Shown: positions 7,419 to 28,021 of the stretch, in pieces | Layout: each line of letters starts with the position of its first letter | How positions within the stretch are numbered: the stretch's first letter is position 1 | NCBI GenBank assembly: GCA_017475555.1 | Contig: JAFVFL010000046.1 | Span: forward strand, 138,676 to 170,675 | Reading direction: 5' to 3' | Length of the DNA stretch: 32,000 nucleotides | Source of the DNA: Ruminococcus sp. | GTDB taxonomy: Bacteria; Bacillota; Clostridia; Oscillospirales; Ruminococcaceae | The notes under the pieces: generated by a model | Told to the model about the DNA's origin: nothing | The model's database searches: none | The model's input: the letters and a program-made list of their open reading frames with translations, nothing else | Made by a program: the position numbers and the translations under genes

Positions 7419-10400
7419 TCAGACAGTTACCTCGCCGGCATCTATCTTCTGTATCATTATTGCGTCAAGTCCCGAAAGACCTACAGTTCCGTCACAGTCT
7501 GCATTCGTCTGTCCCTGCTGCGAGAGAGGATACTTCTCTGAGTTTGCAAGGAACTGGAGAACTGCTACAGCGTCTGCCATGTTTACTTTGTTATCGCAGT
7601 TTGCATCGCCGGGTGTAGTCGAAGTGCTGCCGTCGTCTGATGAGCTTGTAGTTGTCTGTACCGGCTCTGCTGTTGTAGTTGTAGTTGCAGCAGCTGTAGT
7701 TGTCTCAGTGGGCTGGTCGGAGGAGATTATCAGGTCGCCGGTATTGATGAGCATATCGTCCATTGTACCGCCGTCTGTCTCGAACTCTGCCTTGAGTGCC
7801 GAGAAGAGATCCTCACCGGTCTTAGTTGTCATCTTGTAGCTGTTCGCCGGGATATAGCTTACAGAGGAATTTGTATCGAAGTTCTCATAGGTGTTGCCGC
7901 TCGATACCTTTGTGCTCTTGTCTGTAACGATAGTACCGGGAGTTACGTTGTTGCTCTTGCAGTTGTTGAAGTAGTCATTGTAGCTCTTTATAGCACCTGC
8001 GTCAACTCTCTGCGGATTCTTGCAGCTGTTGAATACGTTGTATTCTGAGAAGATGTAAGCATTAGCTCTTGTGTTCTGGCAGTAGCTGGTCTGTCCGTCG
8101 AATACGTTGTTGTACATATGGATATTTGCCTGACGGGCAAGCGGTCCTCTTGACTCGCAGTCCTTCCAGTAGTTGTGGTGGTAGGTCAGGTGGAACTGAA
8201 GATTGCTGTCAGAAGCACCTACCAGGTTAGTCTTGTGATAGCCCTCATAGTAGCAGTAGCTGTTGGTAAAGTACATACCGCGCTTGAAGTCACAAGCTCC
8301 GTCGCCCTCAGCCTTATCGGACTCAGCCGGATTGGATATCTTCGGAACATAGAACTCGCAGTTGTGTATCCAGCACCTCTCAACAGTAGCTGTAAGAGTG
8401 CTGCCGCTCTGAACGCCCTCCATGCCTACGCAGTCCTCAGGTACGTTGCGGAAGGAGATATTTCTTACCTCGAAGCTCTTACCGAAGTCAGGTGCTGCGG
8501 ACTCAGCCATGAAGTGGAAGCCCCAGCCGTTTACACAAGCATCTGAGCCTACGCCCTCGATAGTAACGTTAAGTCCGGACTTCATTCTTGCCATGTAGCC
8601 GTTATCGCCTACAGAGCCGCCGTAATTCACTGAATCGAACTCGGTAACTCCCTCAGGAGCTGTTACATTGCCTATAATTCTAACAACGAGCGGAGTGCCG
8701 TCCTCAGCGAGCTTCTTGATGATACCGTTGTTGGAGTTGGCAGTACCGCCGTTTGAGGTCTTTCCGCCGCCAACGTCCTGACCCGCAGAGTTAAGTATAT
8801 TACCGATACCCTTGACAGTTGTGCCGTCCTTTGAGGTAACGGAAACTGTATTCTTATTTGACTCTGTAACGTAGAGTATCTTAGCGTTTGCTTTTATTGT
8901 ACCGCCGTCAGTGTAAGCACCAACGCCCTTGTCGTAGTTGAAGTGTGCGTAGCCTGAACGATCCTGCTCCGTAACCTCAATTCCTGTGCGGGTAATGCTG
9001 CCCTTGGAGGTATCAAGGGTTATGGAATATGTACCGGGAGCAAGTCCGAGGATATCAACACGGAGTCCTGCGTCTGTATCTCTTACAAGGTACTCAAGAT
9101 CCTCACCAGTGAGCTTTCCGGAGGTGGGGCCTGTGTACGAAACACCTGTAACGTCTGCATCCTTGATGCCTGAGAGCACGAGGTATGCCATCTCGTTCCA
9201 GCCGCCTGAGTAAACCACCTTGATATCACCAACTGAGATATTTCCGCCGCCCTGAACTGATGTAGTTTCGGTCGTGCTGCCGCCCTGTGAAGAGGAAGCC
9301 GTGGTTACAGGTGCAGAGCCGTCGCCGGAATATACCATGTAGAACAGATTAGCTGTGTCAGCCTTTGTGAGTGTGTGGCTGCCTGCTGTAACGTCAGTAG
9401 TTATGATACCGCCTGAGCCTGTGAGCTTTGTGCCGTCAAGCTTTATTGTGGGAGCGTCCTCAGCGAATACAAGGGTGAGCTTTCCTGCTGACGGAGCATT
9501 GAAGCTTATGCTCGTAGCGGACTCTATCTTCAGGCACTGAGTAAGTGTCTTTCCGTCGTAATTTACTGTACCCTTTGCAGTTGAAAGGTTTCCTGTGATC
9601 GAATAGAAGCTGCTTGATGTACCATTTGCAGTGAAGTCATGTACCTGGTCACCAGCTGTAACTGTCGTGCCGCCGCCCGATACAGTTGTGGTAACTGTTG
9701 TAGCAACGACCGGAGCAGCAGTTGTGGAAGCTGTAGTTGACGGAACAGGTGCGTCACCGTCGTCCTTCTTGAAGCCGCTGCCGATAGCAACGATAGAATC
9801 CTTGTAAGCTACGAGTGCAGCCTTGAGTGCGGTATTTACAGCGTAGCTCTCATCATCAACTGAATTGTCGAATGTCCACTTGAAATCGCCGCCGTCAATA
9901 CGACCTGCACCAGCAGTAACTATCGCCGGAACGTCAGCCGCAGCATCAGGAGTATACTTGTACATCGAGCTTGCTGTGTCAAAATTGTTATATGTAGTAC
10001 CACCTGAGACTGTCTTTACACTTGACGGAACGGATTCGCTGCGTGATGAAGCCTCATATGCATCGAAGCTTGAGCTGTTGTCCTGATATGTGATGTAGCT
10101 CTTTGCACCCTCGATGACGTTGCCGTATGACTTGATGATACCACCTGTCTCGCCGGAGAACGTTGCATCAGCAGTTCCGTTGAGTATATCACTGCCCTGG
10201 AGTGAGCTCATCATAGGCTTTGCACAGTTGCGGAAGTAATTGTTCTCTACAAAGCATGATGCTCCCATTGTAACACCTACGCCATACTTTGCGTTGCCGT
10301 CGAAGTAGTTGTTGTAGCTGTGGACTGTGCAGCTGCGAATTCTCGGGTGGCGCGAGTCTGAGTGATCGTACCAGTTGTGGTGGTAGGTTATGTAGTTCTC

Positions 10401-11444
10401 AGCAGTCTCGCTCTTCATTCCCTGAAGATTACACTTTCCGTTATCCCAGAAGTGGTTGTATGAATGAGTGATGTAGCTTGATGTCTTGGTATCAAGTGCT
10501 CCGTCACCCTTAGCCTGGTCGGAGTCGCTGCCTGCATCGCCGTAGAACATATCACAGTGATGTACCCACACATGGTCATTGTTCTGCTGAAGTCCGACAT
10601 CGTCACCCTCTCCGCTGTTGCAGTTCATGAAACCGATATTTCTTACCTCAACATTTGTAGCGTTCGCAATACGCAGACCGAAGCCATTGAAGGTAGTATC
10701 ATTGCCGATACCCTCGATAGTAACACCGCATGAAAGTCTCTTTGATGCACCATTTCCCTTTATGAGCAGATCGCCGTCCATAAGAGTTGCCGGGTCAGTG
10801 ATGTTGCCTATGCAGCGGATATCGAGCGGTCTGTCATCATAGCCCTTCTGGTATGCTGTGAGTATATCCTGTATACCGGTAGACGGTGTAGTTGCACCCT
10901 TTGAGCTTGTAACAACATCGAGCGAAACATTGTCCTTTGTGTCTTCAGTCACATAAAGAACGACCGCATTGCTCTTCAGCGTTCCGTCGTCGTTATATGC
11001 ACCCGAGGAAGAACCATTGACAAATCCGAAGCCGCTTCTGTCGTGTGCCTTGACTGTAACAGCCTGCTCAGCAGCCTTTGAGGTGTCAGCATTTCCGCTT
11101 ATTACAGGTACTATTTTAATGGTATGGCTGCCAGCCTTCAGACCGAGTGCGTCAGCTCTGAAATAGCCGCTGTACTGTCTTACGAGCATTGTGTCGATCT
11201 GTGTGCCGTCAACGTATACATTGTATCCGGTCGCATCGGTAACAGGTGACCATGTAGCATAAAGCCCCTCGTTATAGCCGACGATCGAAGCGATAGAAAC
11301 GTTTGAGGTCGCCGCAGATGCTGTGATAACGCCTGTTGAAAGCACAGCAGTTCCGGTGATGAAGGTACCAGCTGCGGAGCTTGCTGAAACTACAGCAGCT
11401 GCTGCAAGTGAAGCGATACGCTTTCTCATACGTGAATTTTTCAT
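7419..11444 (-). CDS. Secreted modular pectate lyase with two PL1-type catalytic modules, a central CBM-like module and a C-terminal type-I dockerin
   Basis: Start set at ATG 11444 (GGAGGG RBS) with signal peptide MKNSRMRKRIASLAAAAVVSASSAAG. Module 1 reads VWVHHCDMF...GDGALDTK...YHHNWYDHSDSRHPRIRSCTVHSYNNYF. Module 2 reads CWIHNCEF...GDGACDFK...YHHNYWKDCESRGPLARQANIHMYNNVF. Thr-rich linkers join the modules. Dockerin is GDANCDNKVNMADAVAVLQ...NADCDGTVGLSGLDAIMI. Confidence 0.85.
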   Translation of the reverse strand: MKNSRMRKRIASLAAAAVVSASSAAGTFITGTAVLSTGVITASAATSNVSIASIVGYNEGLYATWSPVTDATGYNVYVDGTQIDTMLVRQYSGYFRADALGLKAGSHTIKIVPVISGNADTSKAAEQAVTVKAHDRSGFGFVNGSSSGAYNDDGTLKSNAVVLYVTEDTKDNVSLDVVTSSKGATTPSTGIQDILTAYQKGYDDRPLDIRCIGNITDPATLMDGDLLIKGNGASKRLSCGVTIEGIGNDTTFNGFGLRIANATNVEVRNIGFMNCNSGEGDDVGLQQNNDHVWVHHCDMFYGDAGSDSDQAKGDGALDTKTSSYITHSYNHFWDNGKCNLQGMKSETAENYITYHHNWYDHSDSRHPRIRSCTVHSYNNYFDGNAKYGVGVTMGASCFVENNYFRNCAKPMMSSLQGSDILNGTADATFSGETGGIIKSYGNVIEGAKSYITYQDNSSSFDAYEASSRSESVPSSVKTVSGGTTYNNFDTASSMYKYTPDAAADVPAIVTAGAGRIDGGDFKWTFDNSVDDESYAVNTALKAALVAYKDSIVAIGSGFKKDDGDAPVPSTTASTTAAPVVATTVTTTVSGGGTTVTAGDQVHDFTANGTSSSFYSITGNLSTAKGTVNYDGKTLTQCLKIESATSISFNAPSAGKLTLVFAEDAPTIKLDGTKLTGSGGIITTDVTAGSHTLTKADTANLFYMVYSGDGSAPVTTASSSQGGSTTETTSVQGGGNISVGDIKVVYSGGWNEMAYLVLSGIKDADVTGVSYTGPTSGKLTGEDLEYLVRDTDAGLRVDILGLAPGTYSITLDTSKGSITRTGIEVTEQDRSGYAHFNYDKGVGAYTDGGTIKANAKILYVTESNKNTVSVTSKDGTTVKGIGNILNSAGQDVGGGKTSNGGTANSNNGIIKKLAEDGTPLVVRIIGNVTAPEGVTEFDSVNYGGSVGDNGYMARMKSGLNVTIEGVGSDACVNGWGFHFMAESAAPDFGKSFEVRNISFRNVPEDCVGMEGVQSGSTLTATVERCWIHNCEFYVPKISNPAESDKAEGDGACDFKRGMYFTNSYCYYEGYHKTNLVGASDSNLQFHLTYHHNYWKDCESRGPLARQANIHMYNNVFDGQTSYCQNTRANAYIFSEYNVFNSCKNPQRVDAGAIKSYNDYFNNCKSNNVTPGTIVTDKSTKVSSGNTYENFDTNSSVSYIPANSYKMTTKTGEDLFSALKAEFETDGGTMDDMLINTGDLIISSDQPTETTTAAATTTTTAEPVQTTTSSSDDGSTSTTPGDANCDNKVNMADAVAVLQFLANSEKYPLSQQGQTNADCDGTVGLSGLDAIMIQKIDAGEVTV

Positions 11445-11558
11445 TTTTGACCCTCCATAAAATAATGATATAATGATATAATGAAGCTGCCGATCGCAGC
11501 TTTGTCGGGATCTCAGAGCCGCATTCCCCGGCGGCTCTCTGTGTCCCTCACTGTCTAT

Positions 11559-11587
11559 ATTATACGCCTGTTTTCTGCATATTTCAA
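11559..11587 (-). promoter_or_regulatory. sigma70 promoter for the pectate lyase gene
   Basis: Minus strand reads TTGAAA (11587..11582), a 17-nt spacer, then TATAAT (11564..11559). This leaves a structured 5' UTR of about 110 nt. Confidence 0.5.
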
Positions 11588-11719
11588 TGACAGATAATAC
11601 TAAGAAACTGATTTTTTGTGCTTTTGTGTTTGGATTCCGGAGACGAAAAATCAATCACAAATTATTCACAGTTCATACTTTCTTTTGAAACAGCTTTACA
11701 TTCAAATGTACAATTATGG

Positions 11720-11748
11720 TTGACAAATCCGGATAAATGCTGTATAAT
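11720..11748 (+). promoter_or_regulatory. Consensus sigma70 promoter for the GH5 gene
   Basis: TTGACA (11720..11725), a 17-nt spacer, then TATAAT (11743..11748). Confidence 0.55.
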
Positions 11749-11834
11749 ATAGAAAGAATAATAATATTATCAGAAATTTATACGATACGTATATTGCAGG
11801 CGTGTATATTTCTGATATAAAGAGAGGGAAAATT

Positions 11835-13559
11835 ATGACAAGGAAAAACAAGCTCGTCCGGACAGGTCTGTCTGCGGTATCTGCGGCTGCTCTGCTCATG
11901 ACCGCTTCAGGTATCTCCGCTCCGCTGAGTGTCGGAACTGCAAATGCTGCACCTGATGAGTACCATGACGACTGGCTTCACGTAAATGAAAATGCCGAGA
12001 TCGTCGATATGAACGGAGATCCGGTATGGCTCACCGGCTGCAACTGGTTCGGCTACAACGTTACGACCCAGGTGTTTGACGGCGTCTGGTCAAGAAATAT
12101 GCACGAGATGCTTAACGAAATGGCTGACCACGGATTCAATTTACTCCGTGTACCAATGTCCACCCAGATACTTCTGCAATGGATGAACGGCGACCCTGAC
12201 CCGTATAAGGTCAAGGTCAACGAGTGGAAGAATCCGGAGCTTACAGTCGAGGGTATTGAGGGAGGTACAATCAAGTACAGCTTTGACATCTGGAATCAGG
12301 CTGTTGAGTGGTGCAGAGAAAACGGCATAAAGATAATGATAGATATACACTGTGCCACGACCGCTTCTAACGGACACCAGTACCCACTCTGGTATGACAG
12401 CAACTACTCCACAGATGACTGGCTGACGGCACTTGCATGGGTCGCTGATTACTACAAGGACGATGATACTATCATCGCTATCGACCTGAAAAACGAGCCG
12501 CACGGCAAGAATGACGGACAGGGCATGGCGAAGTGGGACGATTCAACTGATGAAAACAACTGGCGTTATGCGGCTGAGCAGGGTGCAGCGGCTGTCCTTG
12601 AAAAAAATCCGAACCTGCTCATCATGGTCGAGGGCATTGAGGTATATCCAAAGTTCGACGAGGGCGGAACGTGGGATTCTCAGCCTGTTGACTACTCACG
12701 TTATCCGTGGAGTCCGTTCTATGGTGCATGGTGGGGCGGAAACTTCCGTGGTGCAAGGGATTACCCTGTAGACCTCGGCGAGTATCAGAGTCAGCTTGTG
12801 TACTCTCCGCACGATTACGGCCCTCTTGTGTGGGAGCAGGACTGGTTCAAGAAGGACTTCACCCGTGAGACACTGCTTGAGGACTACTGGTACGACACAT
12901 GGGCATATCTTATCGAGGAGAATATCTCTCCACTACTCATGGGCGAATGGGGCGGCTTTATCGACGAGGAGCATGACCCGACCGGTGACAATACAAAGTG
13001 GCTGACTATCCTGCGTGACTACATGATAGAGAAGCATATCCACCATACGTTCTGGTGCTTCAACGAGAACTCCGGCGATACCGGCGGATTGCTGACAAAT
13101 GATTTCCAGGACTGGGACGTTGATAAGTATGAGCTTGTAAAGCCTGCACTCTGGCAGACGAATGACGGAAAATTCATCAGTCTTGACCATACTATCCCCC
13201 TTGGACAGAGCGGAAACGGCATTTCCCTTTCGGATTACTACGGCGGCACTGTGACCCAGCCGACAACTACAGCCGTGCCGGTCACCACGACTACAGAAGC
13301 TGCGGCTTCTGCTGAGACGACAACGATCTCCGGCTCTCAGGATAGTATGGGTGACGCAAACTGCGACAGCAAGGTGAATATGGCTGACGCTGTAGCGGTA
13401 TTGCAGAATCTTGCCAACAGCTCGAAATATTCTCTCTCTGAGCAGGGTGAAAAGAATGCTGACTGCGACGGAAGTTCAGGTCTGACCGGGAATGACGCTA
13501 TCACGATACTACGTGTAGAAGCAGGAGAGATAAAGCAGACTGATCTCCCCCTGAAATAA
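11835..13559 (+). CDS. GH5 endoglucanase (cellulase) with C-terminal type-I dockerin
   Basis: ATG 11835 follows AGAGAGGGAAA. Signal peptide is MTRKNKLVRTGLSAVSAAALLMTASG. The acid/base context is IAIDLKNEPHG and the nucleophile context is LMGEWGG. A Thr-rich linker precedes the dockerin GDANCDSKVNMADAVAVLQ...NADCDGSSGLTGNDAITIL. Confidence 0.88.
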   Translation: MTRKNKLVRTGLSAVSAAALLMTASGISAPLSVGTANAAPDEYHDDWLHVNENAEIVDMNGDPVWLTGCNWFGYNVTTQVFDGVWSRNMHEMLNEMADHGFNLLRVPMSTQILLQWMNGDPDPYKVKVNEWKNPELTVEGIEGGTIKYSFDIWNQAVEWCRENGIKIMIDIHCATTASNGHQYPLWYDSNYSTDDWLTALAWVADYYKDDDTIIAIDLKNEPHGKNDGQGMAKWDDSTDENNWRYAAEQGAAAVLEKNPNLLIMVEGIEVYPKFDEGGTWDSQPVDYSRYPWSPFYGAWWGGNFRGARDYPVDLGEYQSQLVYSPHDYGPLVWEQDWFKKDFTRETLLEDYWYDTWAYLIEENISPLLMGEWGGFIDEEHDPTGDNTKWLTILRDYMIEKHIHHTFWCFNENSGDTGGLLTNDFQDWDVDKYELVKPALWQTNDGKFISLDHTIPLGQSGNGISLSDYYGGTVTQPTTTAVPVTTTTEAAASAETTTISGSQDSMGDANCDSKVNMADAVAVLQNLANSSKYSLSEQGEKNADCDGSSGLTGNDAITILRVEAGEIKQTDLPLK

Positions 13560-14311: not shown

Positions 14312-15490
14312 ATGAATGATTTTCAGTTTTACAGCCCGACCGAATTTGTATTCGGCAAGGATACAGAAGCACAGGTCGGTACACTCGTGAAAAAGCACGG
14401 CGGCACCAAAGTGCTGCTGCATTACGGCGGACAGTCGGCGATCAGAAGCGGCTTGCTCGACAGAGTAAAGCGATCGCTTTCCGAGAAGGATATCCCCTTC
14501 GCTGAGCTCGGCGGCGTGAAGCCGAATCCAAGAGATACGCTTGTTTATGAGGGCATTGAGCTTTGCCGCAGGGAGAATGTGGATTTCCTGCTTGCTGTCG
14601 GCGGCGGCTCGGTCATAGACTCGGCAAAGGCGATCGCAATGGGAGTTCCGTATGAGGGAGATTTCTGGGACTTCTACTCCGGCAAAAGCCCTGCGGCAGC
14701 ATTACCGGTCGGCACGGTGCTGACGATCGCCGCAGCAGGCAGTGAGGGTTCCGGCGATTCTGTCATCACAAAGGAGGACGGAGGTCTGAAACGAGGTGCA
14801 GGCTCCGATCTTATCCGCCCGAAATTCTCTGTTCTTGACCCGGCACTGACCTGCACTCTGCCGCCCTACCAGACAGCCTGCGGTGCGACAGACATTATGG
14901 CACACGTATTTGAGCGTTACTTCACGAATACGACCGAGGTCGAGCTGACCGACCGTCTTTGTGAGGCAGTTCTGCTGACAATGGTCAGGGAAACACCCCG
15001 TGTCATTACTGAGCCGGACAATTATCAGGCACGTGCCAACATCATGTGGGCTGGCACGGTCGCACATACCAACATTGTCGGTGTCGGCAGAGATCAGGAC
15101 TGGAACAGCCACGGCATTGAGCATGAGCTGTCGGCACTCTACGATTGTGCCCACGGTGCGGGACTTGCTGTGATAATGCCGGCATGGATGGAGTTTGTGT
15201 ACAAGCATGATCCGCTGCGGTTTGCACAGGCAGCCGTCCGGGTCTGGGGCTGTCAGATGGATTTTGAAAACCCGGAGGTCACGGCATTGGAGGGGATCAG
15301 ACGATTCCGTCAGTTCCTGCACAGCATCGGAATGCCTGTCAATTTCGCAGAGCTTGGTGCACAGGAGGAGGACATTCCCCGGCTTGTTGAGAAGCACGGT
15401 GTCGGCACCGGAAAAACCGGCGGATTTGTGGCACTCTCGGCTGAGGATATTGCAGAAATATATCGTATCGCAGCAAGGGCAAGTGTATGA
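14312..15490 (+). CDS. Iron-containing (group III) alcohol dehydrogenase, butanol-dehydrogenase/YqhD-like
   Basis: Motifs AVGGGSVIDSAKAIA and the His cluster HGIEHELSALYDCAHGAGLA. RBS is ATGGAGGAACA. Confidence 0.88.
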   Translation: MNDFQFYSPTEFVFGKDTEAQVGTLVKKHGGTKVLLHYGGQSAIRSGLLDRVKRSLSEKDIPFAELGGVKPNPRDTLVYEGIELCRRENVDFLLAVGGGSVIDSAKAIAMGVPYEGDFWDFYSGKSPAAALPVGTVLTIAAAGSEGSGDSVITKEDGGLKRGAGSDLIRPKFSVLDPALTCTLPPYQTACGATDIMAHVFERYFTNTTEVELTDRLCEAVLLTMVRETPRVITEPDNYQARANIMWAGTVAHTNIVGVGRDQDWNSHGIEHELSALYDCAHGAGLAVIMPAWMEFVYKHDPLRFAQAAVRVWGCQMDFENPEVTALEGIRRFRQFLHSIGMPVNFAELGAQEEDIPRLVEKHGVGTGKTGGFVALSAEDIAEIYRIAARASV

Positions 15491-15498: not shown

Positions 15499-15530
15499 AA
15501 AGCAGCACCGGAATAATCTGGTGCTGCTTT
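15499..15530. terminator. Bidirectional hairpin terminator between adh (+) and the clpP-like gene (-)
   Basis: aaagcagcacc ggaataatct ggtgctgcttt forms a stem of about 11 bp flanked by A/T tracts. It sits between the convergent stops at 15490 and 15590. Confidence 0.65.
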
Positions 15531-15589
15531 CTCTGTTACGATACAACGCAGTAATAAGTCTTATCAGGCAAAAAACAGGTGAATTGCGG

Positions 15590-16162
15590 TCAGATCACCT
15601 CGTCCACAACGCCAGCCTTTTTTGCCTCTTCAGCCGTCATCCAATAATCACGGTCACAGATCTGCTCCACCTTCTTGACAGACATTCCCGTAAAGGAGGA
15701 GAGCAGCTGATTGATACGGGTACGCATTTTCATCAGATTTCGAGCAGCTATCTCTACATCTGTTGCCTGTCCGCTTGCACTTCCAAGTACCTGATGAAGC
15801 ATGATCTGACTATTTTCATATGCACATCGCTTACCCTTCGCCCCGCTTGCAAGCAGGAATGCACCCATAGATGCAGATAATCCGCAGCCAACAGTTGCAA
15901 CATCACAATGCAGTCTTCTCATCACATCATATATCGCTAAGCCTGCGGTGACACTGCCGCCGGGGCTGTTGATATACAGCTGGATATCCTGCTTAGGGTC
16001 TGCCGATTCAAGCGTGTGCATTTGTGCAATTACGCTGGCTGCAACGGCATCATTGATCTCATCAAACAGAAGTATGATACGATCAGAAAGCAGCTGATCA
16101 AATGGAGCAACGGATTTTTCCGTGCCATTCGGCTTTTTTGTAATGTAGTTCGGGACAATCAT
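15590..16162 (-). CDS. clpP: ClpP-family serine protease paralog (190 aa), last gene of a three-gene operon
   Basis: LYINSPGGSVTAG is present. The catalytic Ser lies in GLSASMGAFLL, His in IMLHQV and Asp in CDRDYWM. ATG 16162 is 3 nt after the upstream TAA, and RBS GAGGAGGA lies inside the upstream gene's 3' end. Confidence 0.88.
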   Translation of the reverse strand: MIVPNYITKKPNGTEKSVAPFDQLLSDRIILLFDEINDAVAASVIAQMHTLESADPKQDIQLYINSPGGSVTAGLAIYDVMRRLHCDVATVGCGLSASMGAFLLASGAKGKRCAYENSQIMLHQVLGSASGQATDVEIAARNLMKMRTRINQLLSSFTGMSVKKVEQICDRDYWMTAEEAKKAGVVDEVI

Positions 16163-16165
16163 CTT

Positions 16166-17977
16166 TTAATCCTCCTCGTCCGTGGTCGATAACGCTCCAA
16201 ATAGCTCGTCAAATTTTCTTTCTAATTCTCGTCTTATTTTATCTGCCGGATCAGTTTCGTACTGCTTTTTTGTTGATGATAACAGGCTTTTGAATTCTGC
16301 AAGAGCCTCATCTCCGTCAGGGAGAAGGCTGATTGCTGAGATAACTGCATCATCGTTCAATTCTTCCGAAAACTGTATGGCTTCCTTCAATTCGGATTCT
16401 GTGCAGTCTTTTTCTTTCATTTTGTAATTATAAGCTAATATCTGCTCTAAGTATTCAGTGCCGATCTCAAGGTCATCTGAGTCATCCTCGCTTGCACGTA
16501 GAAATGGACAGCGGCGTTGACCACGCTTGATCTCGTTGTAGATGTTCACAAAATCCAACATGGAGAAATTCCTGAACTTCTTCTCCGGCTGTTCTGCGAA
16601 AATATCCGTTTTGAACATTTCATAGCTGTCAATATCCTGCAATCGTGCCATAAATGGGTAATTTCTTCCGGATAATACCAGAGCCTCTACATAGCCCCAC
16701 TCCTTTTTTAAACGCTGTAGTTCAGGAACTGATATCAAAGGCATACACCCGCTCGCAGTGTTTTTACTGCCGCATAGCTGAGAGATCTCATTCAGCAAAG
16801 GCAATTCCTTGCTGTTCAGAAAGATCCAATCGTTGCAGTTTGCCTTGATAATTGATGCACCTGTAGCTCCATATTTATTCTCCAACTGCAAGAGACTTTG
16901 TGCGATAAGGATATATCTGATATTTCTGCTTCTGGCGGCAGCGATCGCATTGCAAAAGCTGGAGATCTCTGGTATATTTCCAAATTCATCAAGAACAAAG
17001 TTTACACGAAGAGGAAGCCGGAGATCGTCTTCTTTCTGTGCTTCATGAATCAATGATTCATATAGCTGCTTGAGAAATGTGGTAACAAGGAAATAATACG
17101 TATTCTTTTCGTCCGAAAGGATAAGATATACTATGCTCTTTTTTCTGCCAACACTATTCAGATCAAAGGTGGTTTCTCCCATCATTTTCTGGAGACGCTT
17201 ATTGCAGAAGAATTGCTGAACCATCGCAGTAAGGCTTGACTGGGTGGATCTGCGGGTCCTTTCGGGTTCACCGAATATACAACGATAGCTCATACCAGCT
17301 ATGGTGGATTGATCCATCATTTGACTAAGCTCCTCAAGCTTTTCAAAATTCTGCTCAAATGAAAGAGTCGTAAAGCTTGAGATATTTGCTTCTTTACGAT
17401 CGGCTACCTTCATCAGGAACAGCATATTCGCAACGCCAAATGTTTGTGCCGTCTGCCACCAAAACGGATCTACTCCACGGGCATTTTTCTGAGAAGCACT
17501 GATCGATTCAATAAAGTCGTTGATCATCTCGATCGCTTCATCCTTCCGCCCGTTGTGATATGCGTCCCAGATCGGGGTCAGCGGATTATAGCCCTCACCA
17601 TAGCTGAAGTCACGGAAGTTCAGAACAAGGACCTCGTATCCCATTTTTTTTGCTGCGTCAGCTGTATGAGCATAGATCTCACCTTTGGGATCTGTGCAGA
17701 CTACGGATTCTCCGGTACGCAGAGCCATATTAACAAACGGAAAGACACAGGTCCTTGTTTTTTTGGAGCCTGTCGATCCGAAAATCAATGTATGGTCATC
17801 CCCATTGTTGACATACACTGTGTCGCCGTCACGGTAAAGCGGGATACCACAGGCAGGGTAACTTTCCTGTGTAAGGTCTACAGCAGTATTGCTCATGCAA
17901 ATATCATCTGCTGATGCCCAATGGCTCTCCGACTGAGGCGGCAGAAATTTCCGATATTTATAGGCGTACTGTTGCAT
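16166..17977 (-). CDS. VirD4/TraG/TraD-like type IV coupling protein ATPase homolog, soluble (no TM segment), with an acidic C-terminal tail
   Basis: P-loop HTLIFGSTGSKKTRT, then VVCTDPKGE. The Walker B/TraG-D_C block is NFVLDEFGNIPE...AAARSRNIRYILIAQSLLQLENKYG...NCNDWIFL. The start is either ATG 17977 (AAAGGAGAG 6 nt upstream, 1 nt after the upstream TGA) or ATG 17998. Confidence 0.8.
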   Translation of the reverse strand: MQQYAYKYRKFLPPQSESHWASADDICMSNTAVDLTQESYPACGIPLYRDGDTVYVNNGDDHTLIFGSTGSKKTRTCVFPFVNMALRTGESVVCTDPKGEIYAHTADAAKKMGYEVLVLNFRDFSYGEGYNPLTPIWDAYHNGRKDEAIEMINDFIESISASQKNARGVDPFWWQTAQTFGVANMLFLMKVADRKEANISSFTTLSFEQNFEKLEELSQMMDQSTIAGMSYRCIFGEPERTRRSTQSSLTAMVQQFFCNKRLQKMMGETTFDLNSVGRKKSIVYLILSDEKNTYYFLVTTFLKQLYESLIHEAQKEDDLRLPLRVNFVLDEFGNIPEISSFCNAIAAARSRNIRYILIAQSLLQLENKYGATGASIIKANCNDWIFLNSKELPLLNEISQLCGSKNTASGCMPLISVPELQRLKKEWGYVEALVLSGRNYPFMARLQDIDSYEMFKTDIFAEQPEKKFRNFSMLDFVNIYNEIKRGQRRCPFLRASEDDSDDLEIGTEYLEQILAYNYKMKEKDCTESELKEAIQFSEELNDDAVISAISLLPDGDEALAEFKSLLSSTKKQYETDPADKIRRELERKFDELFGALSTTDEED

Positions 17978-17978
17978 A

Positions 17979-18473
17979 TCACTCTCTCCTTTCGTCATCA
18001 GGAATCATATCATCCCGTGCTATGTAATGTACTTCAAAATACTCCTCCAGCTTTTCCTTCATTGCGGTATAACGACATTCGCAAGGAACAGTAAACACAT
18101 AACGGATATGCTTTTGGTGGTCATACAAATACGCCAGAAAAGCATCAAGATATTCTGACGGTTCACTGCCGACCCACTGAGAAAGGTTGATAACTGATAC
18201 ACCTTTGAATGCTCCCTGCGTTCCTGTGTGCTCGTCAAGCTCCCATATATAGCGACTTAGTTCTTCAAAGTGTTCCGGCGGTTCACAATAACGCAGACTG
18301 AATATAAACGGATCAGATTTAGAATCTACACAGCTTCCGACAAGTGATGATAATGTTTGGAATTGCATTGCTTCGTGTAATTCCAGCAGCAGGACACCGG
18401 ACGCCCATGACTTGAGCGTAGTGTTTTCCGCATGGATACAGGCAGATATGGGTTCATTAAGATTCATCGCCAT
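17979..18473 (-). CDS. Hypothetical 164-aa cytoplasmic protein, first gene of the T4CP-like/ClpP operon
   Basis: ATG 18473 has AAAGGAGAG 7 nt upstream. No TM segment and no motif I recognise. The stop is coupled to the next gene's start. Confidence 0.6.
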   Translation of the reverse strand: MAMNLNEPISACIHAENTTLKSWASGVLLLELHEAMQFQTLSSLVGSCVDSKSDPFIFSLRYCEPPEHFEELSRYIWELDEHTGTQGAFKGVSVINLSQWVGSEPSEYLDAFLAYLYDHQKHIRYVFTVPCECRYTAMKEKLEEYFEVHYIARDDMIPDDERRE

Positions 18474-18521
18474 ATATAGCTCTCCTTTGCATTAGTTTTA
18501 CGGTGGATCACCTTGAAAGAT

Positions 18522-18550
18522 TATAATAACAGACCTGTAAATAAAAGTCA
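18522..18550 (-). promoter_or_regulatory. sigma70-type promoter for the three-gene operon
   Basis: Minus strand reads TTGACT (18550..18545), a 17-nt spacer, then TATTAT (18527..18522). An overlapping TATAAT lies 3 nt further on. Confidence 0.45.
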
Positions 18551-18700
18551 AGAAGTAAAATGAAAATTTCATAAGATTATCACATTCCAAATGAGATTAT
18601 TAAAAAATCAGGGCTATGCCTCCTGTACACACGGTCACTGAGGACACAGCTCTGTTTTTCGCAAGGCTATTCAATTAGTTTTAATCTTCTTTCAGCCCCT

Positions 18701-19621: not shown

Positions 19622-20061
19622 TTGTAACACCCCTGTTTTTCAAGCAGCTTTCGTTTTATTCTGCGTTTTGTAATTTCACGGTCGCCCCGCCGCTTTTCGG
19701 ATAAACAATTATCCCGCCATACCCCAGCCCGGCAAATGAATACTCGTCAGCTTCCTATCCACAGGAACAGTGCCGCCGTCAGCATACACAGAAACGGATA
19801 AGTGACGATCCTGACGATCTGATTCTTGTTGTTGAAGCTCCTGTCATGCCAGCCAGTGCAGTCCTTTGTCTCCGGAAAAATACGCTGAAAGAATCCCGAT
19901 GTCATCACAAGCCACTGATCCTGCACGACAATATCGAAAAGCTTAACATGGTTAGCACCCACAAACTATATTTCTATTATAGCACATGATACCTCAAATT
20001 GCAAGATTCTGATTGATGAAAAGTTCTCGCCAAATAATTTGTGAAGTGTGCAGACGGAGGG

Positions 20062-20090
20062 TTGCAATTCAGCGAAAGTTGTGATATAAT
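20062..20090 (+). promoter_or_regulatory. Near-consensus sigma70 promoter abutting the truncated ABC gene
   Basis: TTGCAA (20062..20067), a 17-nt spacer, then TGaTATAAT (-10 at 20085..20090). Confidence 0.45.
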
Positions 20091-20122
20091 AATTTTAGTT
20101 AGCAACAGCAAACTGTAATCGT

Positions 20123-21054
20123 GTGGATTCCGACGGTGCCGCAAAAGCACAGGATACGATGGTTTCGAGAATACTGGAATATGTGCGGGGCATTGCAGAG
20201 GTCAGAAATTTCGATCTGTTCGGCAAAAGTATCACGAATGTCGATGCTGCAATCGACGATTTCATAACATACAGTACGCATATGGAGACACATATGAGAT
20301 CGCAATGTTCCTGTTGAGCACTTTGAATAAGCTCTCCGGCGTGGTGATGATGCTGATGAGCATTGCATTTTATCTGAACGGTTCGATGAGCCTTGTTTAT
20401 GCGGTTATGATGATTATATGCTCATTTATGATTTTCGAGTCGCTCGACCAGGTCGGTGCATTCAACGGACTGATCAGAACGATCGAAAACTGTGTGGATA
20501 AGGCGAATGAGGCACTTTCCTCCCCTACAATGGATATTGACGGCAAGGAGATCACGCCGGAAAGCATGACCTTGACGGTGAGAAATGTTGATTTTTCCTA
20601 TGATACAAAGAAGATCATCGACGGCGTTTCGTTTGAGATTCCGGAGCGTACAACAATCGCATTTGTCGGGCCCTCCGGCGGAGGAAAGACGACTATCACA
20701 CAGCTTCTTGCTCGGTTCTGGGACGTGGACAGCGGACAGATTTTGCTCGGCGGAACTGACATTCGGGAGTACAGCTATGACAGCATTCTGGACGAGGCGA
20801 CGGCGAATGTTGACCCGGAAAATGAAAATCTGCTGATGAAAGCAGTCGAATCACTCACAAAGAAAAAGACGGTCATTATGATCGCACACCGGCTGAAAAC
20901 AGTCGAAACTGCAGACCAAATCTTTGTGATCGACCGCGGAAAGATCGTGCAGTGCGGAAAGCATGACGAGCTGATGAAGGAGGACGGAATCTACAGACGC
21001 TTCATCGGCGAGAGAAAGGAAGCCGCAGGCTGGAAGATCGGCAGCCGTGACTGA
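20123..21054 (+). pseudogene. ABC exporter (CydC/CydD-like) remnant: 5'-truncated, frameshifted, with an in-frame deletion of the Q-loop-to-signature region of the NBD
   Basis: Frame 1 (20123..20317) reads AKAQDTMVSRILEYVRGIAEVRNFDLFGKS, a late TMD segment. It switches frame near 20300 to ...VRNVDFSYDTKKIIDGVSFEIPERTTIAFVGPSGGGKTTITQLLARFWDVDSGQILLGGTDIREYSYDSI-LDEATANVD.... Only 31 aa separate Walker A from Walker B, and no LSGGQ is present. Confidence 0.8.
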
Positions 21055-21192
21055 AATTATATAACAATTATAGCCGTCTGTTTTGCAGCAGCTTGCACGG
21101 TAAATCTCCAATCAGATGTACATATCTAATTGGCTTCGCCGCAAATTTTGCCAATAACTCTTTGCGATAGTATACATTATATTCATAAAAAT

Positions 21193-21222
21193 AGTCACAA
21201 GATCTTTTCTGATCCTGTGACT
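21193..21222. terminator. Bidirectional hairpin terminator
   Basis: agtcacaagatc ttttct gatcctgtgact forms a 12-bp stem with 1 mismatch. It is followed by attttgctttt on the + strand and atttttat on the - strand. Confidence 0.55.
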
Positions 21223-21235
21223 ATTTTGCTTTTCA

Positions 21236-21337
21236 TTAACCGCACCAATAATCCATTGAACGATAAACTTCTCCAATCATATCCCAAATTTCTTTAGGTG
21301 CTGAATAGTGAACATTCAAACAAATATCATGTCGCAT
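21236..21337 (-). CDS. Small ORF (33 aa) with its own promoter, RBS and terminator
   Basis: Below the ORF-track size cut-off. Manual translation gives MRHDICLNVHYSAPKEIWDMIGEVYRSMDYWCG*. GGAG lies about 10 nt upstream of ATG 21337. Confidence 0.35.
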   Translation of the reverse strand: MRHDICLNVHYSAPKEIWDMIGEVYRSMDYWCG

Positions 21338-21382
21338 AGAATATCAACTCCATTGTATTGTTATTGCCTCGATATTATCATA

Positions 21383-21411
21383 ATTATACCACGCCACCCC
21401 CGAAAAAGCAA
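21383..21411 (-). promoter_or_regulatory. sigma70 promoter upstream of the 33-aa ORF
   Basis: Minus strand reads TTGCTT (21411..21406), a 17-nt spacer, then TGgTATAAT (-10 at 21388..21383). Confidence 0.45.
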
Positions 21412-21487
21412 TACCCATTTTCATAAAACTGCCGCCCAAACTGCACAATAACTGCACTGAAGCTTATTACATTCATAGAGTGCCGTC

Positions 21488-21525
21488 AAAAAGAAATACC
21501 GCACCCTTTTTCCAGAGTGCGGTAT
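21488..21525 (-). terminator. Rho-independent terminator about 170 nt downstream of the CotH-family gene
   Basis: ataccgcac / gtgcggtat forms a 9-bp stem (21496..21525). On the minus strand it is followed by ttcttttt. Confidence 0.55.
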
Positions 21526-21696
21526 CTGATTTGCCACATTTTTACTCTCTGAACGTGCAGATAGAGAGATTTGCAAAAATGCGGATACTTAGTAAAACGG
21601 GGAGTTTGCAATGTAAAAGCAGACAGATCACACACCCGGCTCCATTAGTCTCCGGTTATCCCAGAGCTATGGTAATATGCGAGTTGGTACGCTCAT

Positions 21697-24600
21697 CTAT
21701 CCATTGAGGTTCGACAGACTGATATCTTCAAAGTGATATGTACCCGAACGCAGTCCGGTACAGATTATCAGGCTTATATTAGTACAATCCTCCGGCATAG
21801 TGAATGTAAAAGTATGAGTCTGAGGTGTGATAGATGAAGTATAGATCATGTGTTCATAGGTGTTGAATTTATCTGTTGTTCCCTGTACGCCGATACTGCA
21901 TGGCAATGAATCAGCGTCCGTGGAAAGTGTGAACTGTATTTGATATGTCTTTCCCGCCTTTAATGAAAGCCCTGAATAATACGCCTGTATCTGCCATATC
22001 TTTGGAGCTGTATCTGATGTGATGAGCGTAACATCATCAGCAGCGTTAGTTTTCATATCAAAATTTACACCTAAATCGCCCTTGCTCCAGCGGTTCTGAT
22101 CTGTAATGAGTTCGACAGCAGCGGCAGTATTTATAAGCTGCCCTCTCATCATCACGAGGTCAAATGCGTCAATACTGTTGTCCTTGCAAAGATCGCCTGC
22201 CTGCCAATCAGCAAGCTCTGCTTCCGGGACACCAAGCAGCCATTTCTGCATTAAAACAACATCAGCAATGCTGAATCTGCCGTCAGCATTGACATCTCCA
22301 GTCGGAACATAAGCACCGAAATTCGCTGTCAACTCCATGTCTGATTCTACAGTAAAGGTGACCTCAGTCTCCTTGCTGCCAAATCTTCCGCTCCAGCCTA
22401 TGAACGACTCACCATTTTCCGGAGCTGCACTGACAGTGATCGCTGTACCGGCAGGATACTTACATACAAGACCGTCCGAAAGCTCTCCTGCTGGGATACC
22501 ATTTACAAGAATGCTGCCGCTTCCGCTGGTGTTAAGTGTTACGGAATAAAGCTCTTTATTCAAGCCGCAGTAGCTCATCATCTGTGTGATAGCATAGTCC
22601 GGACGTTTCTGGAAGAACTGTGTGATCTCATCGAACATCGTTCTGAGATATGCTTTTTCATCATCACGAACAGAGGCTGTTGGTTTTGCTGCCGAATTCC
22701 AGCGAAGCTCACTGTCTGTAAAATATTCAAAATATGTATCTGTCAGCCCGGTGATCTGAGCAGCCATTTTATCCGGTGCATAGACAACATTAGCATAGTC
22801 GCAGAAACGGCTTGCAAATTTATCCTTGAATGCAGGATTATCAAGCAGACGGATGAAGGCAGCCGCAGTATAAGTTGAGGAATTGCCCAGTTTACTGAAC
22901 ATATTATAGCTGTAGGAGCTGACTGCACCGGAATAATCAAGGCCACAGGTGAATTCGAAATCATATGTGCCAAAACGCCATTTACCGTCTGAATAGGGAT
23001 TGCCCTCGATTTCGGCTCCGTTGGAACGCCATACGATATAGTTGTGATTTGGCCAGTCCCACATTCCTGTGTAAAGACAAACAGCAAAGTGTTCGATCAT
23101 GCTGTCAACGTCAAGCTGCTGTGTCACCGCTTTATAATTTGCGGCATCGGACATATCATTGTCCCTTATAAAATTTATGAGATCGTTATATGCTTTAAGA
23201 TCATCAGCTGTTCCTTCTTCAAGAGCATTGTCCTTTATCATAGCGACATCTTCTTTGGCTATGCCGTAGTTGCTCTGGATATAGAAATCAGAGATCTTTT
23301 CCTGTATCTCATATAACCCCCAGTATTCGCCGTTCAGGAAGACAACAGCTTTGTCCCTGTCGATCGTTGCCATGTTATCAATGTCCTTCAGGGGAGTCTG
23401 TACGATCTGATCCCGCCAGCGGTTTATCCAGCTTACAGCACGCAGCGAGAATGAGTCATATTTCTTTATCTGCTTTCCGTCATCAACGGCTTTGTTGTCT
23501 GAGATAAGGTTGAAGTTCAGTTTAGAGTCACCGTATTCACTTCTTGCATAGACATTAAAGCTCTTCATTGCAGCATTGCGAGTAGACGCACCCTTTATGC
23601 GTATTCCCATATCCTGAGAAAGAGTCATCTCACCGTTCTGGAAAAGGCTCATGGTTGCCTCACGCTCCCACGATCTGCCTTTGCTGAAAAAGTTGGCAGC
23701 ATTATTTGTGTCCCATTCACTCTTGTCAGGATCATAGCTGCTGCTGTTTTTCCAGTCTATGAACTGCTGACCGACAACATAGATCCCTGTATCCTTATTG
23801 AATAGGTTTTCTCCGTCCGTAACAAGTGAAACGACCGGTATTTCCCGATAATATGCCAGCCGTTCACTGTCCATAACAAAATATGTATTGGTGATTATTT
23901 CGCTCCATACATCGCCGTCCTTAGCTGCGGCACGTATCACATTTGCCTTTTCAACAGGATAATCCGGTGCTTCATATTTCGTCTTTATGATTATAGAATA
24001 TGGACTGCTATCTTCGTATTCATAATTGTTCCAGATATTTTCATCTTCGGAGCGATCATGTAAGGTCAGAGTACCGTCATAAAGGACGGCACTGGCAGAC
24101 ATTGTAGGATCGCTGCCGTCAGTCGTATAGTAAATATCTGAAGAAGCATTAAGTGAAAGAAGTGGAGTATCCGCAGAATCATAAAATCCGGAGGGCAGTG
24201 AAAACTGTGGAGCGGCAACAGAAAAGACGTTTATCGCACCTGGTGTAGGAGCCATTTCAGACCATTCATCGGAGCCCGGCAGTAAACCGTAGGTACGATC
24301 CTCTGCAAGTGCAGGAATGGTAAGCGTCTGTACTGTTTTGCCGGAGCTGTCGCATAATGTCAGCGAATCGCCGTTTTTGCTCAGTCCGAAGCCGGTGTGG
24401 TATTCTGTCCCGGTCGAAGCCGCTTTGCTTGCAAAAACTATCAAATATTCTCCTGCACCAATTGAAGCCCCGGCGGGGAATGTCCAGCTTGTACCAGAAT
24501 CTGCAAGCGTCCAGCCGTTCAGAGCTATTAACGAATCTGAGCCGTTATACAACTCTATCCAGTCTGAGGCACTGCCGTAGCTGTCCAGATGTGAAGCCTT

Positions 24601-24732
24601 ATTCTGTGTGCAAACCTCTGTTATCATCAGCGACTGCTCCGCAGCAGCTGTTCCAAGCATAACTGCTGGAAATGAAGTGATCGTCAGACACACTGCGACC
24701 AGAGTGCTTTTGAGACGTTTTACTGTTTCCAT
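21697..24732 (-). CDS. Secreted CotH-family (atypical kinase fold) protein with an N-terminal lamin-tail-like domain, an internal type-I dockerin and a C-terminal CBM-like beta-sandwich
   Basis: ATG 24732 has GGAGG 6 nt upstream. Signal peptide is METVKRLKSTLVAVCLTITSFPAVMLGTAAA. The LTD-like segment is MITEVCTQN...DWIELYNGSD...GWTLAD. A large CotH-like core follows (...MKSFNVYARSEYGDSKLNFNL..., ...EYWGLYEIQEKI...). Dockerin is GDVNADGRFSIADVVLMQKWLL...AGDLCKDNSIDAFDLVMM. Confidence 0.7.
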   Translation of the reverse strand: METVKRLKSTLVAVCLTITSFPAVMLGTAAAEQSLMITEVCTQNKASHLDSYGSASDWIELYNGSDSLIALNGWTLADSGTSWTFPAGASIGAGEYLIVFASKAASTGTEYHTGFGLSKNGDSLTLCDSSGKTVQTLTIPALAEDRTYGLLPGSDEWSEMAPTPGAINVFSVAAPQFSLPSGFYDSADTPLLSLNASSDIYYTTDGSDPTMSASAVLYDGTLTLHDRSEDENIWNNYEYEDSSPYSIIIKTKYEAPDYPVEKANVIRAAAKDGDVWSEIITNTYFVMDSERLAYYREIPVVSLVTDGENLFNKDTGIYVVGQQFIDWKNSSSYDPDKSEWDTNNAANFFSKGRSWEREATMSLFQNGEMTLSQDMGIRIKGASTRNAAMKSFNVYARSEYGDSKLNFNLISDNKAVDDGKQIKKYDSFSLRAVSWINRWRDQIVQTPLKDIDNMATIDRDKAVVFLNGEYWGLYEIQEKISDFYIQSNYGIAKEDVAMIKDNALEEGTADDLKAYNDLINFIRDNDMSDAANYKAVTQQLDVDSMIEHFAVCLYTGMWDWPNHNYIVWRSNGAEIEGNPYSDGKWRFGTYDFEFTCGLDYSGAVSSYSYNMFSKLGNSSTYTAAAFIRLLDNPAFKDKFASRFCDYANVVYAPDKMAAQITGLTDTYFEYFTDSELRWNSAAKPTASVRDDEKAYLRTMFDEITQFFQKRPDYAITQMMSYCGLNKELYSVTLNTSGSGSILVNGIPAGELSDGLVCKYPAGTAITVSAAPENGESFIGWSGRFGSKETEVTFTVESDMELTANFGAYVPTGDVNADGRFSIADVVLMQKWLLGVPEAELADWQAGDLCKDNSIDAFDLVMMRGQLINTAAAVELITDQNRWSKGDLGVNFDMKTNAADDVTLITSDTAPKIWQIQAYYSGLSLKAGKTYQIQFTLSTDADSLPCSIGVQGTTDKFNTYEHMIYTSSITPQTHTFTFTMPEDCTNISLIICTGLRSGTYHFEDISLSNLNG

Positions 24733-24776
24733 AGCCAACCTCCTTTGCGAAATTTGGATCCATTTTGTATGATCAG

Positions 24777-25441: not shown

Positions 25442-25456
25442 ACTACTACCTCCATA

Positions 25457-26932: not shown

Positions 26933-26937
26933 AACAT

Positions 26938-28016: not shown

Positions 28017-28021
28017 ACGAA

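Follow-up and report, generated by a model that had tools for sequence, protein, structure and literature searches.

Introduction

To our knowledge, the protease ClpP has been shown to work only with AAA+ Clp ATPases, as in ClpXP, ClpAP and ClpCP. Here we describe an operon in which a ClpP gene follows the gene for a ring ATPase of another superfamily. It lies in a 32,000-nucleotide stretch of a Ruminococcus sp. assembly (GCA_017475555.1, contig JAFVFL010000046.1, positions 138,676 to 170,675 of the forward strand), referred to below as the window, and consists of three consecutive minus-strand open reading frames (ORFs) spanning 15590-18473, between one promoter-like site and one strong hairpin. 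These encode a 164-residue protein, a soluble ATPase of the type IV coupling protein (T4CP) kind and a ClpP. The best explanation, whose chances we judge to be about even, is that the operon encodes a cytoplasmic ATPase-protease module that is independent of any type IV secretion system (T4SS) and belongs to a type widespread in uncultured Clostridia of the gut and rumen; the ATPase would engage the substrate and ClpP would provide the output.

An (L/I/V)-G-(F/L) tripeptide of the Clp ATPases inserts into hydrophobic pockets on ClpP and mediates docking (PMC8745299, PMC7112952). As in ClpXP, ClpAP and ClpCP, a true Ser-His-Asp ClpP is here encoded beside a ring ATPase, and the family of the first gene, referred to below as the partner family, combines an AAA+ fold with this tripeptide. 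However, the large ATPase is a T4CP of the FtsK/HerA superfamily rather than an AAA+ Clp ATPase, the partner tripeptide sits at a disordered C-terminus and not in an internal loop, and most partners lack the Walker A lysine. Furthermore, the window proteins are devoid of the tripeptide, and in the ClpPs linked to these ATPases the gate residues are altered and an otherwise invariant proline is replaced. Conjugative T4CPs (NF045973, VirD4/TraG/TrwB) share with the window ATPase a nucleotide-binding and an all-alpha domain with Walker and RSRN motifs; it exceeds their Pfam cut-offs and, by a narrow margin, that of NCBIfam. In contrast to them, the window ATPase has no membrane anchor and no relaxase, VirB4 or mating-pair genes nearby, is only about 30% identical and falls in a separate clade, whose ATPases are preceded by an AAA+-like gene.

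The SIR2-HerA and DUF4297-HerA anti-phage systems join a ring ATPase of the FtsK/HerA superfamily to an adjacent effector. The present operon likewise sets a ring ATPase of that superfamily beside an enzyme that may serve as effector, and the corresponding slot is variable among its relatives, but the ATPase is a T4CP and not HerA, the putative effector is ClpP, and there is an additional AAA+-like subunit. The ietAS system of PADLOC also pairs an ATPase with a serine protease, and an AAA+ protein of about 690 residues that co-occurs with the module matches IetA weakly (4e-8); nevertheless, none of the three window proteins matches IetA or IetS, and the ietAS protease is subtilisin-like rather than a ClpP. 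No description of the module was found in PADLOC-DB 2.0.0, or of the partner in Pfam or NCBIfam. A full-text search for T4CP or VirD4 with ClpP, defence or CARF gave nothing relevant in an incomplete literature set, so that this is absence of evidence, and the Aravind-group papers on conflict systems that we examined do not mention the module. It thus appears to unite known parts in an unreported combination.

A coupling-protein ATPase without anchor or secretion system

The middle gene (16166..17977, minus strand) encodes a 603-residue protein when read from the ATG at 17977, as in public gene calls; an alternative in-frame ATG at 17998 would give 610 residues. The Pfam check suggested by a first-pass annotation of the window, which had recognized T4CP hallmarks in this protein, returned three T4CP families: T4SS-DNA_transf (PF02534, 3.7e-42), TraG-D_C (PF12696, 2.5e-21) and TrwB_AAD_bind (PF10412, 5.9e-17). 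With NF045973 (conju_CD1115, an equivalog for VirD4-like conjugal transfer proteins) the protein scores 255.5 bits, just above the cut-off of 250, but its identity to annotated members is only about 30% and it falls in a separate clade, so that orthology to them is doubtful. DUF87 (HerA) stays below its threshold (16.5 bits, cut-off 23.2). The T4CP motifs are present in the translation and conserved in relatives: Walker A GSTGSKKT (17756..17779, minus strand; invariant in alignment A1), DPKGE, Walker B FVLDEF (16982..16999, minus strand; E331 invariant and D330 nearly invariant in A1) and AARSRN. A P-loop NTPase domain with T4CP-specific motifs and an all-alpha domain are both found, and the enzyme is, from its motifs, apparently catalytically competent.

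The protein had further been described as an orphan soluble ATPase without a membrane anchor, and this proved accurate. Its maximal 19-residue Kyte-Doolittle hydropathy is 1.01, and no N-terminal anchor is present, whereas two genuine conjugative CD1115 proteins reach 2.75 and 1.80 within their first 80 residues. Across the clade of soluble ATPases the most hydrophobic segment is a conserved helix in the interior of the sequence, around residue 170; the anchor has been lost throughout the clade. The window ORFs of 110 residues or more include no relaxase, VirB4, TrbL, PrgI, pilin or other T4SS gene. The same holds for about 90 related loci and for the top families of 128 randomly sampled neighbours. 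The ATPase thus possesses a T4CP catalytic core but lacks two features that define such proteins, the membrane anchor and the T4SS context.

Genuine coupling proteins of the family are found in a different setting. The best tblastn matches of the ATPase among 72,556 plasmids are about 30% identical and annotated as CD1115-family coupling proteins on conjugative plasmids. The coupling protein of Bacillus thuringiensis plasmid pBMB68 adjoins a MobP3 relaxase, TrbL, PrgI and a DUF87 ATPase, and that of Monoglobus has PcfB, VirB6/TrbL, PrgI, a VirB4-like ATPase and a CHAP-domain protein as neighbours. In a tree rooted on these two proteins, the soluble chromosomal ATPases form one clade apart from the conjugative CD1115 T4CPs, and we propose that they derive from conjugative coupling proteins of Firmicutes and have since lost the anchor. 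A scan of 2.9 million viral contigs yielded no more than two relatives, both distant (33-35% identical) and without partner and ClpP; since the plasmid and viral collections are both biased to cultured organisms, absence from them is weak evidence.

These results bear on the simplest alternative, an orphaned coupling protein and a passenger ClpP left behind by an integrative conjugative element and having no joint function. The ATPase does lie just over the cut-off of a conjugal-transfer family, a serine recombinase is encoded near the trio in one relative (locus L007), and CHAP-domain proteins occur near it in three loci. However, relaxase, VirB4, TrbL and PrgI are missing from the window and from the sampled neighbours, the clade as a whole has lost its anchor and is distinct from conjugative T4CPs, and the co-divergence with a private ClpP clade described below is not expected of a decaying remnant. 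The first-pass annotation had set down as adverse to its reading the case that homologous trios always sit inside conjugative elements; no T4SS families were seen in the loci or their sampled neighbours, unlike genuine CD1115 loci. We regard the remnant as largely refuted and very improbable. The nearest public record for the ATPase is named merely "MAG: ... [Ruminococcus sp.]" (MAG, metagenome-assembled genome), and the label "conjugal transfer" is probably mistaken for hundreds of proteins in MAGs of gut and rumen Clostridia, which stand outside conjugation systems.

A ClpP clade linked to the ATPase

The third gene (15590..16162, minus strand) encodes a 190-residue ClpP that matches CLP_protease (PF00574) with an E-value of 1.2e-68 and 231 bits and its best ClpP in the Protein Data Bank (PDB) with an E-value of 1e-58. 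The catalytic triad is intact, as first read: Ser98 (codon 15869-15871), His123 (15794-15796) and Asp172 (15647-15649, all on the minus strand). The protein falls below the cut-offs of housekeeping models (TIGR00493, 225.4 against 308.6; PRK00277, 241.9 against 249) and is borderline for PRK12553 (228, cut-off 228).

Sub-threshold NCBIfam matches to ClpP-related head maturation proteases, together with prophage-like genes at about 25.4-32 kb of the window, might suggest a phage origin, in which the ClpP-like protein would be a prohead protease and the ATPase an FtsK/HerA-type packaging enzyme, both serving morphogenesis of the nearby prophage. Yet the score with the phage model Clp_rel_HeadMat (NF045542) is 97.4 bits, short of the cut-off of 120, and models of cellular ClpP give 226-242 bits. 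In addition, about 7 kb of cellular genes separate operon and prophage, no capsid or portal gene stands beside the trio in any locus, and the viral contigs yielded just the two distant relatives mentioned above. This origin, too, is largely refuted, and we consider it extremely improbable.

The ClpP was compared with the other ClpPs linked to these T4CPs (12 in all), with 77 housekeeping ClpPs from metagenomes and with the Escherichia coli and Bacillus subtilis references. The 77 outgroup sequences come from a metagenome scan with the alignment of linked ClpPs, which gave only housekeeping ClpPs among the matches listed; among these, the ATPase was present at 0/80 loci and a ClpX-like ORF at 31/80. 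In a neighbour-joining tree the 12 linked ClpPs group together to the exclusion of all others. They are also set apart by individual residues (window numbering). Position 33 is Phe in 11 of the 12 and in none of the 79 others, and position 116, Pro in 79/79 others, is Glu in 9/12. Gln at 119, Val at 125 and Trp at 174 replace what is mostly Glu, Pro, and Phe or Tyr, respectively, and positions 5, 6 and 9 of the N-terminal gate, canonical elsewhere, are changed. Several of these positions presumably belong to the axial face, the docking side for ATPases, and may map to the hydrophobic docking pocket.

Pairwise distances among the ClpPs correlate strongly with those among the ATPase cores (Mantel r = 0.93, 0/5000 permutations as high), and ClpP and ATPase have therefore diverged together. 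Among the ClpPs compared, the clade occurs solely beside these ATPases and is dedicated to the module.

The clade shows a further peculiarity. The triad Asp is replaced by Asn (DRNNWM) in 7 of the 12 linked ClpPs (L022, L032, L035 with clpP at 6203-6781, L043, L054, L056 and L068) as against 1/79 controls. The same exchange in ClpP1 of Listeria monocytogenes, also a second, divergent ClpP, yields a heptamer that is inactive until paired with ClpP2 (PMC5361862). By analogy, this suggests that the Asn-type linked ClpPs may pair with the ClpP of the host. The window ClpP differs in retaining Asp172, and Listeria ClpP1 is not linked to a T4CP.

The first gene and its AAA+ partner family

The 164-residue protein (17979..18473, minus strand) has no match in Pfam, NCBIfam or PADLOC and had been listed as unknown, a label that no longer fits. 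A homologue was found by tblastn alone directly 5' of the ATPase gene in 69/94 loci, always at that position. In GTDB loci this partner is almost always 280-300 residues long (about 285), and its family comprises 946 representatives at 50% identity (E <= 1e-3), all of those named by their source being a "hypothetical protein". Alignment A3 reveals a GxxGxGK[TS]-like P-loop, a DIDEW Walker-B-like strand and a helical lid, but no more than 42/120 partners retain the Walker A lysine. Against the PDB, the sequence profile of the family gave CbbX alone, and marginally (E about 1), so that structure prediction was needed for the AAA+ assignment. The AlphaFold2 (AF2) model of the full-length partner from the ClpP-linked locus L054 (predicted local distance difference test, pLDDT, 87.7; predicted template modelling score, pTM, 0.81) has CbbX as its best Foldseek match in the PDB (3syk, E 1.5e-10), followed by RuvB, RFC, ClpA, HslU and ClpX; its last 14 residues are disordered. 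The family also aligns with the N-terminal domain of the co-occurring SpoVK/CbbX-type AAA+ protein of 690 residues (hhalign probability 99.6%, E 9e-25). The kinship with CbbX, SpoVK and EccA, in which CbbX is both the best structural and the sole profile match, has its limits, since the partner Walker A is often degenerate, the window copy is reduced to an alpha/beta-core fragment of 164 residues, and no Rubisco, sporulation or type VII secretion context is seen.

Copies of that larger protein (660-737 residues) were recorded near the module at L011:6030-8105, L021:6936-8933, L022:8376-10589, L043:1970-4024, L049:9158-11140 and L064:7533-9635. Each joins a partner-like N-terminal domain to a canonical SpoVK/CbbX-type AAA+ module (AAA and AAA_lid_6), and 6/6 end in IGF.

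The 164-residue protein aligns in A3 to the middle of the partner family, without P-loop, lid or tail. It contains no GK[ST], and the Walker B position reads INLSQW. Its AF2 model (pLDDT 76, pTM 0.73) retrieves almost exclusively AAA+-type cores among the Foldseek matches listed (clamp loader, Vps4, spastin; E about 6e-4 to 1e-2, TM-scores about 0.5). On this model, the protein is a P-loop-less, lid-less and tail-less AAA+-fold remnant of a CbbX-like partner. The short form is common to two other sequences at 52-54% identity and is thus not a recent truncation, and partners of intermediate length (235-263 residues) with decayed tails occur at L001, L003, L179 and L180. The earlier view that this ClpP goes without an AAA+-type partner holds for the reduced clade of the window only; the family at large possesses a full CbbX-like partner with the docking tripeptide.

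Where the tail is kept, it is strikingly uniform: IGF, IGL, LGF or VGF occurs within the last 14 residues of 119/120 partners, compared with 11/596 neighbouring proteins taken as background. This raises the alternative that the true protease pair is formed by the AAA+ partner, or in larger islands by the 690-residue SpoVK/CbbX-like protein, docking on ClpP as ClpX does, while the T4CP acts as a sensor or regulator that binds, for example, DNA or an incoming protein; the window operon would then be reduced or partly decayed and depend on the Clp ATPases of the host or on the tail of the T4CP. The AAA+ fold of the partner and the position of the motif in a disordered C-terminus agree with such a pairing, as do the IGF ends of the larger protein, 3/6 of whose loci are ClpP-linked; and the persistence of the tail motif where no own ClpP is encoded fits docking on the host ClpP in trans. 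On the other hand, most partners cannot be active unfoldases, given that so few retain the Walker A lysine. The motif is, moreover, equally conserved without an encoded ClpP, so that the tail may dock on the T4CP or another target, and the window clade has retained its ClpP after losing the motif. This pairing is the main rival of the model set out below, but we consider it rather unlikely.

Conservation of the module and its variable third gene

To survey the module, we located the contigs that encode relatives of the ATPase and scanned one genome per GTDB species. Loci encoding such relatives number 408 in GTDB. The best 80 of them are all from uncultured Clostridia MAGs (Oscillospiraceae, Acutalibacteraceae, Lachnospiraceae and Ruminococcus; 40-50% identity), and ClpP stands directly 3' of the ATPase in 7 of these 80. 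The order small protein-ATPase-ClpP recurs with gaps of -25 to +49 bases among quite different neighbours, at ATPase identities of 64% (L007), 58% (L001), 50% (L180), 46% (L003) and 42% (L011). Co-conservation of the trio had been set beforehand as a test of the idea that it is a unit, and its recurrence in unrelated contexts down to 42% ATPase identity bears that idea out. A second, shorter T4CP/HerA-like ATPase (434-444 residues) is encoded near the trio at L001:10797-12101 and L003:2886-4220 (mutual identity 23%, E 8e-16) and is not found in the window.

The gene that follows the ATPase on the same strand varies. In 16 loci it encodes a helical protein of 283-299 residues without a Pfam match. 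A Card1-like nuclease with CARF and PD-(D/E)xK domains (PADLOC CARF4--CARF_PDDEXK, 1e-34) occupies this position in 3 loci and is nearby in 9, and other loci have ClpP, a tetratricopeptide repeat (TPR) protein of 400 residues, Sel1 proteins, a TIR protein (L017) or membrane proteins of 565-611 residues. Judging by these gene orders, the conserved core is the AAA+-like gene with the T4CP, a pair present almost throughout the family, and ClpP is one of several interchangeable third genes. Recurrent neighbours include the SpoVK/CbbX-type AAA+ protein (6 loci), paired YbjN-like proteins (5 loci), transglutaminase-like proteins (8 loci), a PrsW protease and a DUF4062-STAND protein.

At L011 (a locus of 21.7 kb) the trio lies within a dense island that encodes TIR and ThsB-like proteins, a Card1-like CARF nuclease, the AAA+ protein, YbjN-like, RyR, RidA and transglutaminase-like proteins and a methyltransferase. 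This island may be one large multi-gene system.

The first-pass annotation had proposed a defence role, for which the variability of the third gene and a minority of defence-island contexts speak. Other observations weigh against it: the 128 random neighbours from GTDB loci belong mostly to ordinary metabolic families, the operon of the window is itself flanked by a hydrolase gene and by adh, an alcohol dehydrogenase gene, and PADLOC-DB 2.0.0 returned no system, its only match being mad8 on the ATPase domain (35 bits), with none for the 164-residue protein or ClpP. The partner and the common third gene of the relatives have no match in that database either. The mad8 match could not be interpreted, the MADS preprint text giving no domain assignment for mad8. 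We make no claim of enrichment in defence islands. Recognizable defence islands are a minority of insertion sites, and from its mostly metabolic neighbourhoods the module behaves as a small cassette inserted at many chromosomal sites.

The same neighbourhoods invite an explanation free of conflict, namely a specialized regulated-proteolysis or quality-control pathway of spore-forming Clostridia, in which a ClpP paralogue would act with an alternative ATPase, phages and plasmids not being its targets. It would be in keeping with the ordinary chromosomal genes around most loci, the SpoVK/CbbX-like AAA+ relatives, the lack of a PADLOC system and the Asn of 7/12 linked ClpPs, as in Listeria ClpP1, which functions when joined to the housekeeping ClpP2 in a hetero-complex (PMC5361862). 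Less easily reconciled with it are the patchy distribution and varying insertion sites, the exchange of the third gene for CARF-nuclease, TIR and TPR proteins, and the placement of some loci within dense TIR/CARF/STAND islands. We consider such a pathway unlikely.

A model for a proposed ATPase-protease module

In the explanation that we favour, the ATPase ring, with or without the partner, would select and engage a macromolecular substrate, for which ClpP would provide the proteolytic output. In the window clade, contact with ClpP would be made by the acidic C-terminal tail of the ATPase, FDELFG...DEEED. This tail is the best candidate for a ClpP tether because the partner of this clade has lost the canonical docking tripeptide. 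The role of the module would most probably be conflict-related, directed at phages or other mobile elements, or else lie in the specialized regulated proteolysis considered above; the conflict-related role is suggested by the exchange of the third gene among nuclease, TIR, protease and repeat proteins, by the scatter of the insertion sites and by the island contexts of some loci.

The case for the tail derives from a comparison of ATPases with and without a linked ClpP. Past the conserved ELQR anchor, the C-terminal extension has a median of 130 residues in ClpP-linked ATPases and 82 in the others (Mann-Whitney p = 2e-5). An [FYL]x[EQNDS][LIV][FY][GA] motif with acidic residues at the end is found in 8/12 ClpP-linked ATPases but in only 1/53 others (Fisher p = 8e-7), although the pattern was picked post hoc, after the sequences had been seen, and the 8 positive ATPases represent about 3 lineages and are not independent. 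In the window ATPase the tail reads ELERKFDELFG...DEEED, amphipathic and then acidic; the candidate docking peptide, ELERKFDELFGALSTTDEED (16169..16228, minus strand), is kept in ClpP-linked relatives.

Besides these limits of the tail statistics, several facts count against the proposed model. The ATPase of L025, which has a Sel1-type third gene and no ClpP, carries the same tail motif, and the canonical (L/I/V)-G-(F/L) motif was found neither in the window ATPase nor in the 164-residue protein. ClpP is missing from L179, a close relative at 51% identity, and the ClpP-linked ATPases are scattered in a poorly resolved neighbour-joining tree. Finally, the gene for the 164-residue protein may be a decaying remnant, but its short form is kept in three sequences.

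A bolder version of the model can be drawn from these comparisons. An FtsK/HerA ring that is not AAA+ and stems from a conjugative T4CP might have been taken over by the cell to engage substrates for a private ClpP, on which it would dock via its C-terminal tail, and would thereby constitute a new class of ATP-dependent protease. Such a machine might serve the immune interception of mobile-element proteins or protein-DNA complexes (relaxase-ssDNA, phage terminal proteins), and the wider family would then offer a modular framework for immunity or regulation, with nuclease, TIR or repeat-protein outputs able to take the place of ClpP. Taken as a whole, we hold this version to be doubtful.

Even so, the module may represent a new class of ClpP-activating machine, a chance that is real but unproven, or at the least a possible new class of ClpP partner, as a ClpP lineage is inherited only with a T4CP-type ring ATPase. 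That inheritance, the changed residues of the gate and presumably of the axial face, and an AAA+-fold protein with a tripeptide tail together suggest that ClpP may be driven or regulated in a manner not yet explored. Should the variable third gene be an effector slot, the family would amount to a new modular conflict system in a clade in which few defence systems have been tested. The question is tractable, as it involves three small soluble proteins with clear point mutants.

Operon structure and the surrounding window

The three minus-strand genes are closely coupled, with both junctions as given in the first-pass annotation and confirmed on ORFs and sequence. The first junction, TGA-t-ATG at 17981..17975, has GGAGAGAG just 5' and reads ...GGAGAGAGTGAtATG...; the second, TAA-aag-ATG at 16168..16160, has GAGGAGG just 5' and reads ...GAGGAGGATTAAaagATG.... 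The intergenic gaps are thus 1 and 3 bases, and the Shine-Dalgarno sequence of each downstream start lies inside the preceding gene. Public gene calls on the identical contig give the same three proteins.

The first gene is preceded at a distance of 50 bp by a promoter-like site of the sigma-70 type (TTGACT-17-TATTAT, extended by TG; 18523..18551, minus strand). The annotation had found the right site with coordinates one base off; they run 18551..18523. The site is a consensus match only and agrees at 10/12 positions in our scan, but with 11 such matches in the stretch against 6.8 expected from shuffles, the excess is only slight.

The claimed terminator hairpin (15499..15530, minus strand, followed by UUUGUUU) is strongly supported by folding, with -25.3 kcal/mol and z = -4.9, none of 200 shuffles being as stable. 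A consensus terminator scan did not pick it up, apparently because the end loop exceeds the 3-8 nt limit of the scan. It is placed between the convergent clpP and adh genes and may be a bidirectional terminator.

Low G+C content had been offered as a sign of accessory DNA, which composition does not support: the trio has 44.5% G+C and the window 46.5%. The iron-type alcohol dehydrogenase gene adh (14312-15490; 55.6% G+C) is the compositional outlier of the window, not the trio.

The remainder of the window is of mixed content. Cellulosome-type genes at 7419-13559 and 21697-24738, encoding a 1411-residue pectate lyase with CBM77, a GH5 cellulase and a 1013-residue CotH-kinase/LTD/dockerin protein, are consistent with a fibre-degrading Ruminococcus, and ATP-binding cassette (ABC) transporter genes are also present. 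The stretch 19631-21696 is gene-poor, its sole ORF (249 residues, 20305-21054) having a partial ABC-transporter ATPase domain and a hydrophobic N-terminus and being probably a fragment of an ABC exporter gene. A prophage-like block occupies 24898-32000, with prophage-like genes from about 25.4 kb on: a UmuC/ImpB-type polymerase (25457-26947), an ImmA/IrrE metallopeptidase (26938-27501), a cI-like helix-turn-helix repressor (27523-27954), an ORF of 255 residues in divergent orientation and a large terminase (29351-31060). At the other end of the window (1134-3005), a 374-residue protein of the PD-(D/E)XK family is followed by a 235-residue protein with weak matches to sigma-70 region 4 and to dual-specificity phosphatases.

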